NCBI GenBank assembly: GCA_964016885.1
Contig: OZ024760.1
Location: 24,304,001 to 24,368,000, forward strand
DNA: 64,000 bases
Origin: Eledone cirrhosa
Lineage: Eukaryota
Direction: 5' to 3'
In this document: positions 37,349-48,149 of the stretch, piece after piece
Position numbering within the stretch: the first letter of the stretch is position 1
Layout of the letters: every line of letters begins with the position of its first letter
The notes under the pieces: generated by a model
The model's input: only the letters and a program-made list of their open reading frames with translations
What the model was told of the DNA's origin: nothing
Database searches by the model: none
Made by a program: the position numbers and the translations under genes

Positions 37349-40300
37349 TAGGCTTTTATATTTATATGTGAGCTGATAGAGTACTGTCTAAGGATTTACA
37401 GAAACCCATGAAGCTAGATTTAACACCTTTCTAGTGGGTCCGGGTATGATTTTACATTCATTTAAATTATTGACGTATTGTTTTATTGATATTTTTTATC
37501 TGTTTGGCCCGAATCTTCCTTTATCGATTTTAAATCGTATGGTTGATTGTAGACTTGTTCTATATGTGACGGTATTTTAACGATAGTTATAGCTCTGATT
37601 CATCTGAATTATTGAGCCCTCTGCCGCTCATATCGGATTTCGTTTTTCGTTAACTCGTGCGCCGATTTTTCGATACTCGATCTTTCTAATATATTTAGCT
37701 CTGGACTTAGCTATCCACCAGTTAATTTTATTGCTCATATTTTGTCGATTCTATTGAGTGATGAATAGCTTTTGTTTTATTTTAACATGTCTATTGAGCA
37801 CTCTAATTCGATATGTGTATTTCCACATTCACTCGAATTATTTTCGCGGATATAGGGGTCATCTCCCTTGTCTAATGCCATGTGCGTTTTTCACCGCTAG
37901 TTGACTCCTTTGCCGCCAGGATAAAACTCGTTGACAACGTAAACTCCATTCCACTTATTCTAGTAGGCTTTTATATTTATATGTGAGCTGATAGAGTACT
38001 GTCTAAGGATTTACAGAAACCCATGAAGCTAGATTTAACACCTTTCTAGTGGGTCCGGGTATGATTTTACATTCATTTAAATTATTGACGTATTGTTTTA
38101 TTGATATTTTTTATCTGTTTGGCCCGAATCTTCCTTTATCGATTTTAAATCGTATGGTTGATTGTAGACTTGTTCTATATGTGACGGTATTTTAACGATA
38201 GTTATAGCTCTGATTCATCTGAATTATTGAGCCCTCTGCCGCTCATATCGGATTTCGTTTTTCGTTAACTCGTGCGCCGATTTTTCGATACTCGATCTTT
38301 CTAATATATTTAGCTCTGGACTTAGCTATCCACCAGTTAATTTTATTGCTCATATTTTGTCGATTCTATTGAGTGATGAATAGCTTTTGTTTTATTTTAA
38401 CATGTCTATTGAGCACTCTAATTCGATATGTGTATTTCCACATTCACTCGAATTATTTTCGCGGATATAGGGGTCATCTCCCTTGTCTAATGCCATGTGC
38501 GTTTTTCACCGCTAGTTGACTCCTTTGCCGCCAGGATAAAACTCGTTGACAACGTAAACTCCATTCCACTTATTCTAGTAGGCTTTTATATTTATATGTG
38601 AGCTGATAGAGTACTGTCTAAGGATTTACAGAAACCCATGAAGCTAGATTTAACACCTTTCTAGTGGGTCCGGGTATGATTTTACATTCATTTAAATTAT
38701 TGACGTATTGTTTTATTGATATTTTTTATCTGTTTGGCCCGAATCTTCCTTTATCGATTTTAAATCGTATGGTTGATTGTAGACTTGTTCTATATGTGAC
38801 GGTATTTTAACGATAGTTATAGCTCTGATTCATCTGAATTATTGAGCCCTCTGCCGCTCATATCGGATTTCGTTTTTCGTTAACTCGTGCGCCGATTTTT
38901 CGATACTCGATCTTTCTAATATATTTAGCTCTGGACTTAGCTATCCACCAGTTAATTTTATTGCTCATATTTTGTCGATTCTATTGAGTGATGAATAGCT
39001 TTTGTTTTATTTTAACATGTCTATTGAGCACTCTAATTCGATATGTGTATTTCCACATTCACTCGAATTATTTTCGCGGATATAGGGGTCATCTCCCTTG
39101 TCTAATGCCATGTGCGTTTTTCACCGCTAGTTGACTCCTTTGCCGCCAGGATAAAACTCGTTGACAACGTAAACTCCATTCCACTTATTCTAGTAGGCTT
39201 TTATATTTATATGTGAGCTGATAGAGTACTGTCTAAGGATTTACAGAAACCCATGAAGCTAGATTTAACACCTTTCTAGTGGGTCCGGGTATGATTTTAC
39301 ATTCATTTAAATTATTGACGTATTGTTTTATTGATATTTTTTATCTGTTTGGCCCGAATCTTCCTTTATCGATTTTAAATCGTATGGTTGATTGTAGACT
39401 TGTTCTATATGTGACGGTATTTTAACGATAGTTATAGCTCTGATTCATCTGAATTATTGAGCCCTCTGCCGCTCATATCGGATTTCGTTTTTCGTTAACT
39501 CGTGCGCCGATTTTTCGATACTCGATCTTTCTAATATATTTAGCTCTGGACTTAGCTATCCACCAGTTAATTTTATTGCTCATATTTTGTCGATTCTATT
39601 GAGTGATGAATAGCTTTTGTTTTATTTTAACATGTCTATTGAGCACTCTAATTCGATATGTGTATTTCCACATTCACTCGAATTATTTTCGCGGATATAG
39701 GGGTCATCTCCCTTGTCTAATGCCATGTGCGTTTTTCACCGCTAGTTGACTCCTTTGCCGCCAGGATAAAACTCGTTGACAACGTAAACTCCATTCCACT
39801 TATTCTAGTAGGCTTTTATATTTATATGTGAGCTGATAGAGTACTGTCTAAGGATTTACAGAAACCCATGAAGCTAGATTTAACACCTTTCTAGTGGGTC
39901 CGGGTATGATTTTACATTCATTTAAATTATTGACGTATTGTTTTATTGATATTTTTTATCTGTTTGGCCCGAATCTTCCTTTATCGATTTTAAATCGTAT
40001 GGTTGATTGTAGACTTGTTCTATATGTGACGGTATTTTAACGATAGTTATAGCTCTGATTCATCTGAATTATTGAGCCCTCTGCCGCTCATATCGGATTT
40101 CGTTTTTCGTTAACTCGTGCGCCGATTTTTCGATACTCGATCTTTCTAATATATTTAGCTCTGGACTTAGCTATCCACCAGTTAATTTTATTGCTCATAT
40201 TTTGTCGATTCTATTGAGTGATGAATAGCTTTTGTTTTATTTTAACATGTCTATTGAGCACTCTAATTCGATATGTGTATTTCCACATTCACTCGAATTA

Positions 40301-46300: not shown

Positions 46301-48149
46301 ATATTTAGCTCTGGACTTAGCTATCCACCAGTTAATTTTATTGCTCATATTTTGTCGATTCTATTGAGTGATGAATAGCTTTTGTTTTATTTTAACATGT
46401 CTATTGAGCACTCTAATTCGATATGTGTATTTCCACATTCACTCGAATTATTTTCGCGGATATAGGGGTCATCTCCCTTGTCTAATGCCATGTGCGTTTT
46501 TCACCGCTAGTTGACTCCTTTGCCGCCAGGATAAAACTCGTTGACAACGTAAACTCCATTCCACTTATTCTAGTAGGCTTTTATATTTATATGTGAGCTG
46601 ATAGAGTACTGTCTAAGGATTTACAGAAACCCATGAAGCTAGATTTAACACCTTTCTAGTGGGTCCGGGTATGATTTTACATTCATTTAAATTATTGACG
46701 TATTGTTTTATTGATATTTTTTATCTGTTTGGCCCGAATCTTCCTTTATCGATTTTAAATCGTATGGTTGATTGTAGACTTGTTCTATATGTGACGGTAT
46801 TTTAACGATAGTTATAGCTCTGATTCATCTGAATTATTGAGCCCTCTGCCGCTCATATCGGATTTCGTTTTTCGTTAACTCGTGCGCCGATTTTTCGATA
46901 CTCGATCTTTCTAATATATTTAGCTCTGGACTTAGCTATCCACCAGTTAATTTTATTGCTCATATTTTGTCGATTCTATTGAGTGATGAATAGCTTTTGT
47001 TTTATTTTAACATGTCTATTGAGCACTCTAATTCGATATGTGTATTTCCACATTCACTCGAATTATTTTCGCGGATATAGGGGTCATCTCCCTTGTCTAA
47101 TGCCATGTGCGTTTTTCACCGCTAGTTGACTCCTTTGCCGCCAGGATAAAACTCGTTGACAACGTAAACTCCATTCCACTTATTCTAGTAGGCTTTTATA
47201 TTTATATGTGAGCTGATAGAGTACTGTCTAAGGATTTACAGAAACCCATGAAGCTAGATTTAACACCTTTCTAGTGGGTCCGGGTATGATTTTACATTCA
47301 TTTAAATTATTGACGTATTGTTTTATTGATATTTTTTATCTGTTTGGCCCGAATCTTCCTTTATCGATTTTAAATCGTATGGTTGATTGTAGACTTGTTC
47401 TATATGTGACGGTATTTTAACGATAGTTATAGCTCTGATTCATCTGAATTATTGAGCCCTCTGCCGCTCATATCGGATTTCGTTTTTCGTTAACTCGTGC
47501 GCCGATTTTTCGATACTCGATCTTTCTAATATATTTAGCTCTGGACTTAGCTATCCACCAGTTAATTTTATTGCTCATATTTTGTCGATTCTATTGAGTG
47601 ATGAATAGCTTTTGTTTTATTTTAACATGTCTATTGAGCACTCTAATTCGATATGTGTATTTCCACATTCACTCGAATTATTTTCGCGGATATAGGGGTC
47701 ATCTCCCTTGTCTAATGCCATGTGCGTTTTTCACCGCTAGTTGACTCCTTTGCCGCCAGGATAAAACTCGTTGACAACGTAAACTCCATTCCACTTATTC
47801 TAGTAGGCTTTTATATTTATATGTGAGCTGATAGAGTACTGTCTAAGGATTTACAGAAACCCATGAAGCTAGATTTAACACCTTTCTAGTGGGTCCGGGT
47901 ATGATTTTACATTCATTTAAATTATTGACGTATTGTTTTATTGATATTTTTTATCTGTTTGGCCCGAATCTTCCTTTATCGATTTTAAATCGTATGGTTG
48001 ATTGTAGACTTGTTCTATATGTGACGGTATTTTAACGATAGTTATAGCTCTGATTCATCTGAATTATTGAGCCCTCTGCCGCTCATATCGGATTTCGTTT
48101 TTCGTTAACTCGTGCGCCGATTTTTCGATACTCGATCTTTCTAATATAT
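37349..48149 (+). mobile_element. Tandem array of ~17.5 x 615-bp units; putative retrozyme concatemer
   Basis: ggcttttata recurs at 37351, 37966, 38581 and onward; one hammerhead per period; ends in (TA)n. The periodicity is certain; the retrozyme call is inference. Confidence 0.8.
37922..38069 (+). ncRNA. Large type I hammerhead (first of 17 complete copies, +615 bp each); predicted cleavage after 38055
   Basis: Stem I actcg/cgggt (plus taaa/ttta); core TTGACAA; stem II gtaaa(c)tcc/ggatttac; GAAA; stem III ACCCA/TGGGT plus ctaga/tctag; GUC site. Confidence 0.72.

Follow-up and report, generated by a model that had tools for sequence, protein, structure and literature searches.

The locus

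The window analysed here is a stretch of 64,000 nucleotides from Eledone cirrhosa (contig OZ024760.1, positions 24,304,001 to 24,368,000, forward strand). It contains, on the + strand at 37349-48149, a tandem array of 17.56 copies (10,801 bp) of a 615-nt unit, each with a predicted hammerhead ribozyme; the unit is a candidate retrozyme of the type without long terminal repeats (non-LTR). Unit position 1 is set at 38056, the first base 3' of the predicted cut, so that the array is truncated at its 5' end at unit position 524 and stops at unit position 254. An initial annotation had reported about 17.5 head-to-tail 615-bp units without a long open reading frame, and the longest stop-to-stop frame found in 37300-39300 encodes 62 amino acids (aa). 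It had also expected 16 identical 615-nt monomers; a single mismatch (45181 C>T) among the 17 full units counted from 37441 leaves 15 of the 16 identical and one different. The GC content of the array is about 0.36, and simple patterns for Pol III A/B boxes and a TATA box gave no match on the + strand.

The array lies between two (TA)n microsatellites, at 37036-37146 and 48144-48343, which appear to be the left and right halves of the target. Its last 13 nt (48137-48149, + strand) form a motif identical to the 3' end of a Penelope-like element (PLE) and probably mark the start site of reverse transcription. The motif also occurs inside every unit (e.g. 38297-38309), where no TA repeats follow it. 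Between the left TA run and the array, on the - strand at 37147-37348, lies an inverted, 5'-truncated PLE 3' end, 99% identical over 219 nt to the PLE copies L074 and L077. This arm is fused head-to-head to the array with no spacer, and the whole is flanked by the two TA runs. The initial annotation recognised the array correctly but overlooked its TA target, the PLE arm joined to it and the fixed start site inside the unit.

The hammerhead motif

The first complete type I hammerhead spans 37926-38060 on the + strand and recurs every 615 nt in 17 copies, as judged by sequence, folds and pair counts. In the usual hammerhead numbering, a 5-bp stem I (37926-37930 with 38056-38060) is followed by the core U3-U4-G5-A6-C7-A8-A9 (37931-37937), an extra C (37938), a long hairpin of 76 nt as stem II (37939-38014), an extra A (38015), G12-A15.1 as GAAA (38016-38019), stem III (38020-38053) and U16.1-C17 (38054-38055), with the cut predicted after 38055. 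The 5' halves are complete in 17 copies (37926+615k), and the GUC recurs at 38055+615k up to 47895, exactly the 17 complete ribozymes first proposed; one further, incomplete copy lies at 37440.

All the features required of a type I core are present (U4, G5 and A6, A9, G12, A13 and A14, A15.1-U16.1, H17 and a 3-8 pair). Among 35 variants of the family the 3-8 position is U-A in 19, U.G in 15 and unpaired in one. Stems I, II and III, which had been described as being in register, all form in the minimum-energy fold of a fragment of 152-161 nt. A descriptor demanding a paired 3-8 position, the core and stems of at least 5, 5 and 4 bp found an equal match in none of 5000 dinucleotide shuffles, and scanned over the whole window it found no equally good match outside the array. 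No tertiary contact between loop 1 and loop 2 is recognisable, stem II being the 76-nt hairpin. The motif escapes a CTGANGA scan, as anticipated, since this string is absent from the array; an Rfam scan likewise returned no hammerhead at the gathering score over the window, nor at E up to 10 over 37100-38700. Modelling the unit as a circle gives a fold (z -2.3 against 40 shuffles) that lacks stem I and is 4.8 kcal/mol more stable than the active one.

Distribution and conservation of the family

The genome searched comprises 3.0 Gb and is rich in microsatellites. Exact 3' junctions of the family number 742 (control 0), the internal form of the 3' site occurs 1,423 times, and hammerhead-pattern matches, some few of them partial, amount to 2,712 (control 0). 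A DNA search for the unit gave 407 candidate regions, of which the best 18 were scored. The family is dispersed, with clades 72-100% alike. Sister clades have units of 605-613 nt with about 80% identity; their 3' ends lie at the homologous position but carry a slightly altered motif. One copy was found at 72-77% identity. The 615-nt unit and the 615-nt joint also occur in contigs from three other organisms, in one of which there is a TA end at 38309. A further sequencing run, X1, taken for RNA only by guess, yielded short AT-rich fragments and one of 144 nt, which were left aside. The novelty claimed at first is narrower, because the U3-A8 core and the unit size have already been published. 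No description of the 615-nt family, nor of a retrozyme start site shared with a PLE, was found in the literature searched, which did not include Repbase, Dfam and most subscription papers.

In 63-65 insertions, recurrent changes in the core region are limited to N7, position 8 (A or G), the extra base and one pair of stem I. Either base at position 8 pairs with U3, and the stem I change, from A-U to G.U, stays paired. Among eight related representatives, 34 of 38 core and proximal stem positions are invariant, compared with 398 of 572 elsewhere (p 0.009). In the 35 variants, 99.7% of the stem cells are paired; for the sister clade only the four basal pairs of stem II were counted, because its rows are shifted in stem II. 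The most distant copy (L254:1123-1282, the one at 72-77% identity) has one two-sided change (U-A to C-G in stem II) and a perfect stem I. A search for a C3-G8 subfamily gave 4 matches against 8 in the control and thus no such subfamily under that pattern.

Insertion anatomy

Insertions were sampled as the first 100 of the 742 junctions listed (99 on C1 and one on C2). Of the 18 best-scoring arrays, 17 stop at unit position 254, counted from the predicted cut, with (AT)n beyond; the eighteenth has no readable 3' flank. Insertion lengths range from 47 nt upward, many copies being shorter than one unit and long arrays reaching about 10-12.6 kb. The position of the 5' end varies, and in 32 of 52 cases a TA run adjoins it; a target-site duplication, which in non-LTR retrozymes exceeds 4 bp where it occurs, would be lost from view in such a run. 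Inverted 5' arms of the retrozyme itself occur at two loci (L039 and L187). Junctions between units are base-perfect at the cut site, unlike template jumps. The fixed 3' end, the variable 5' ends and the inversions together form the pattern expected of target-primed reverse transcription of a + strand RNA from one internal start. In four insertions (L154, L169, L179 and L181) the 5' end coincides with the internal start motif, and the length is almost exactly one or two units.

The 5' ends are not spread evenly along the unit. Eleven of 52 in a first set (p 6e-6, uniform null) and 6 of 28 in a second (p 3e-4, computed on 24) fall within unit positions 1-25; pooled, 17 of 80 do so and none fall within positions 26-50, where TA/AT density is similar. 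The sister clade has 8 of its 17 ends at +8 to +16. This accumulation just past the predicted cut is an indirect sign of ribozyme cleavage in vivo; it would be expected if reverse transcription ran off the end of cut RNA, or if it stalled where the ribozyme or the ligation joint lies.

Arrays are far more uniform within than between loci. Adjacent units differ by 0.69 nt (78 pairs), whereas arrays differ by 17.1 nt (561 pairs), and among the 34 arrays that have two or more full units there are 30 distinct haplotypes, each running through its whole array. Several of these haplotypes differ by one to three changes, each present in every unit. All units of the window array have 267T, and most arrays of the youngest group have 267A. 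Such an array-wide variant arises most simply from a single monomer read repeatedly. Within 30 arrays, 5 of 37 variable sites recur in several units of one array: L047 has the same change in 5 of 13 non-adjacent units, and L033 has one site with two different changes in three of four units. A lesion on a circle would fit these recurrent same-site changes; gene conversion or assembly effects are possible sources.

A Penelope-like element as candidate helper

A search for GIY-YIG domains gave 10,595 candidates, 150 of which were scored and 40 loci examined. Six loci belong to one PLE family whose 3' end consists of the same 13 nt followed by (AT)n. In this PLE, the internal copy of the 13 nt, in the pseudo-LTR (pLTR), runs into non-TA sequence, as do the internal copies of the retrozyme. 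Exact end motifs of this family, internal copies included, number 7,021 genome-wide. Locus L069 has a frame of 938 aa with a reverse transcriptase (RT), a CX4CX2C linker and a GIY-YIG domain, the upstream part lying in separate frames. It shows the RT, CX2-5CxxC linker, C-terminal GIY-YIG domain, pLTRs with hammerhead and TA bias given in the definition of Craig et al. (2021; PMC8557442), and by its sequence it is an autonomous Neptune/Nematis-type PLE. Close relatives of its protein that bear a name are mostly bivalve or bivalve-associated records.

The helper PLE carries a minimal hammerhead with the same U3-A8 core as the retrozyme, about 147 nt before its 3' end. In the arm beside the array it occupies 37284-37321 (- strand), with a 4-bp stem II and a palindromic CCGG for stem III. 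The core of the distant retrozyme copy in L254 is identical in seven bases to it. PLE insertions typically have inverted arms (Craig et al., 2021; PMC8557442), and the fused locus is, in its sequence anatomy, this structure with one arm replaced by the retrozyme.

The only 13-mer common to the unit and the L069 PLE is the terminus of both. The three changes that separate the end of this retrozyme clade from that of its sister clade all match the helper PLE. An older PLE relative, L252, ends like the sister clade, and another, L067, does not, so that co-evolution of retrozyme and PLE ends is only a lead. An origin of the unit as a pLTR-derived PLE fragment was rejected, as there is only the 13-nt match to L069 and nothing longer than 22 nt at about 90% identity in the 40 GIY-YIG loci; model R1 found no match in eight PLE loci.

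Several further PLE observations were made. At L035, L123, L145 and L164, a single TA run contains both a retrozyme insertion and PLE pieces, with TA repeat between them. Six PLE copies (L074, L077, L080, L063, L240 and L233) end 68 nt before the main 3' end, at a second start site resembling the PLE 'tail'. A second PLE family (L075, L081 and L082) contains a large type I hammerhead with a canonical C3-G8 pair and a 20-bp stem III (region L082:5660-5780, - strand, also in L083), which is predicted to fold as a monomer. Small canonical hammerheads whose stem II begins with an A.A mismatch, an oddity shared with the retrozyme, occur at L059:25-58 and L081:2358-2391.

Proposed mobilisation and alternative explanations

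The array is most probably a non-autonomous non-LTR retrozyme mobilised by a TA-targeting PLE of the Neptune/Nematis type. The retrozyme assignment is supported by the signatures of retrotransposition, the conservation of the hammerhead and the clustering of 5' ends past the predicted cut; of the sequence-level features expected, only a canonical base of stem II is missing. A plant LTR retrozyme, with LTRs, a type III hammerhead, a primer-binding site (PBS), a polypurine tract (PPT) and a 4-bp target-site duplication, is ruled out by the type I motif, the pure tandem structure and the absence of LTR anatomy.

In the cycle proposed, arrays would be transcribed on the + strand, and the hammerhead would cut the transcript after GUC every 615 nt, as its structure, its conservation and the accumulation of 5' ends suggest. 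Some monomers would be ligated to circles, in which stem I is predicted to refold and the ribozyme to be switched off. A PLE protein would then nick (TA)n, and reverse transcription would start from the internal 13-nt motif shared with the PLE end; the fixed end, the TA target and the common motif are observed, and from these we infer the enzyme. A circle read for up to about 20 rounds would yield uniform head-to-tail arrays with random 5' ends, and linear cut RNA would give run-off near the cut and copies of about 230-250 nt, causes proposed for patterns that are seen in the genome. In the window, the second target strand may have primed on PLE RNA, giving the inverted PLE arm whose anatomy is described above.

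A number of observations weigh against this interpretation. The base of stem II is not paired directly between A9 and G12: a C.A mismatch, a caveat already raised in the initial annotation, is real and precedes a G-C pair, and it is A.A in most other clades. The extra A between stem II and G12 is non-canonical. A U.U mismatch at the same place still permitted cleavage in the axolotl HHR_Amex2 (Cervera and de la Pena, 2020; PMC7229834). The hammerhead fragment is no more stable than shuffles (z -0.48), and no two-sided changes were found in 20 pairs over 35 variants, which says little because the stems mostly never vary. P-values are optimistic since the copies are related, and the null for the clustering of 5' ends is uniform; exact junctions at position 13 number 15 genome-wide, against 19 at a control TA position (148), and single hot spots of 5' junctions are driven by TA microhomology. 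As for the helper, a single direct fusion to a PLE was seen among 98 5' flanks, all but about 8 nt of the common 13-nt motif is itself TA repeat, TTCTAA followed by a TA run also terminates other repeats, and the sister clade has a different motif at its 3' end. Eight of nine predicted Xenopus retrozymes are reported not to have cleaved in vitro (Li, Clavereau and Pollet, 2026; bioRxiv 10.64898/2026.07.22.740005), and an Anolis PLE ribozyme was dispensable for insertion in vitro (Frangieh et al., 2024; PMC11167929).

In an unlikely alternative, the PLE drives insertion from an uncut or partly cut linear multimer with an internal start, no circles are formed and the ribozyme is slow or protein-assisted. 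A PLE enzyme does start internally on linear, unprocessed RNA in vitro (PMC11167929), and a multimer transcribed from a uniform array would give a uniform daughter. However, new variants would then remain in one unit, yet 34 arrays contain 30 array-wide haplotypes, a pattern that needs a monomer bottleneck or else local homogenisation in very young arrays, and the base-perfect unit junctions at the cut site do not resemble template jumps.

It is quite unlikely that the retrozyme is served by another TA-targeting element, such as a different PLE family or an RTE long interspersed nuclear element (LINE), the common motif and the fused arm being a coincidence or the outcome of a later deletion between neighbouring insertions. 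Many repeats in this genome end at TA runs, several of them in TTCTAA; there are 10,595 GIY-YIG candidates, with at least four families among 20 loci; and the fusion is single. Against this, the 13-nt match is exact at both termini, the three end changes separating the clades all agree with the helper PLE, the U3-A8 core is common to both elements, and the head-to-head junction has no spacer while both 3' ends lie in TA runs.

An ordinary minisatellite, spread and homogenised at the DNA level with a chance or dead hammerhead look-alike, would suit the near-perfect tandem identity, the unremarkable stability of the local fold and the lack of two-sided covariation in the 35 variants, but is highly improbable given hundreds of dispersed loci with one fixed end, a variable other end and a TA target, some with 5' inversions, and given also the many copies that fall short of one unit, the 0 of 5000 shuffles and changes that fall on tolerated core positions.

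Beyond mobilisation of a retrozyme by a PLE, a tentative and rather doubtful extension may be considered, in which the unit would be no fragment of a PLE but an independent, viroid-sized RNA circle that parasitises the PLE by mimicking nothing but its internal start site, and that site would have been altered to follow the helper, given that the clade end matches the present PLE end and the sister-clade end matches the older relative L252. Each long array would then record up to about 20 rounds of reading on one circle, and in L047 and L033 a base that was damaged or modified would have been misread more than once. RNA-to-RNA replication or a viroid-like origin of the unit is conceivable but finds no support.

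Other features of the window

An apparently intact L1/Tx1-like LINE occupies 26034-30692 (- strand), with a frame of 398 aa followed by one of 1153 aa (endonuclease, RT and zf-RVT matches); it shows no link to the array. Short frames at 53207-53794 (+), 55686-56171 (-) and 10056-10517 (+) resemble, in their motifs, fragments of other non-LTR retrotransposons. Minisatellites of 56 bp and 40 bp and a 2.1-kb AAC-type repeat lie at 33970-34498, 17149-17643 and 3208-5354.

Relation to known systems and significance

The non-LTR retrozymes of animals are described as protein-free tandem repeats with one type I hammerhead per unit and a GC content below 50% (Cervera and de la Pena, 2020; PMC7229834). 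Like them, the present family has no LTR, PBS or PPT and co-exists with PLEs. It differs in its unit of 615 nt, compared with about 170-400 nt, in its U3-A8 or U3.G8 core with long stems II and III, and in a ribozyme predicted to be blocked in the circle, most animal circles in that account being predicted to let it fold. That work proposed that circles are reverse transcribed in a rolling fashion and left the priming mode and partner open, whereas here the start site is internal and fixed, the target is (TA)n and a candidate partner is named. Expression and circles were shown for those retrozymes, whereas the 615-nt family is described here from DNA.

More recently, retrozymes with units of 51-972 bp were regarded as PLE derivatives (Li, Clavereau and Pollet, 2026; bioRxiv 10.64898/2026.07.22.740005). 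Both cases concern tandem hammerhead repeats linked to PLEs, and 615 nt lies within that size range. The units reported there are homologous to PLE pLTRs, whereas the present unit has just the 13-nt terminus in common with the PLE. That study favours local growth of tandems, whereas the arrays described here appear to arise as multimers in a single insertion.

The hammerheads of PLEs themselves, with a U3-A8 core and about 1,300 matches in Schistosoma (Cervera and de la Pena, 2014; PMC4209133), resemble the retrozyme motif in an unpaired base between positions 9 and 10.1, a short stem I and a long stem II; a long stem III is known from fungal and protist PLEs. The present motif differs in the extra A before G12 and in belonging to a non-coding unit that is not a pLTR. 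The same work proposed, without evidence, circles as templates for PLE copies of more than one unit. The U3-A8 core, the extra base 5' of stem II and the 615-nt unit size are thus already published; what is new is the record of mobilisation.

For the insertion step, a close parallel is the Poseidon enzyme of Anolis, PAc, which in vitro begins copying at an internal site of the RNA and extends both strands of the target, and whose PLE ribozyme is protein-assisted (Frangieh et al., 2024; PMC11167929). Neptune/Nematis PLEs (PMC8557442) and PAc share with the retrozyme the bias for TA microsatellites, 5' truncation, partial tandems, an inverted 5' arm and an internal start. The start site of PAc is not homologous to the cut DNA, whereas the retrozyme start site closes with a short TA tract matching the target; moreover, the retrozyme encodes no protein, unlike these PLEs and PAc.

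The main value of the locus lies less in the ribozyme than in the mobilisation record, which comprises the fixed internal start, the TA target, the uniform arrays, the footprint of the cut and the fused helper. The route by which animal retrozymes return to the genome, the enzyme concerned and the priming on a circle were stated to be open by Cervera and de la Pena (2020; PMC7229834). For this young family the template, the start nucleotide, the target and a candidate enzyme can all be named, which makes the model testable in vitro with the existing PLE assay. There would also be technical interest in a reverse transcriptase that turns a small circle into more than 10 kb of cDNA at a defined target. 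Thousands of ribozymes of this family are invisible to Rfam and CUGANGA scans, and similar families have probably been missed for this reason. If the unit does behave as a parasitic circle, the genomic arrays would be evidence that target-primed reverse transcription can proceed by a rolling circle and that the ribozyme cleaves in the germline.

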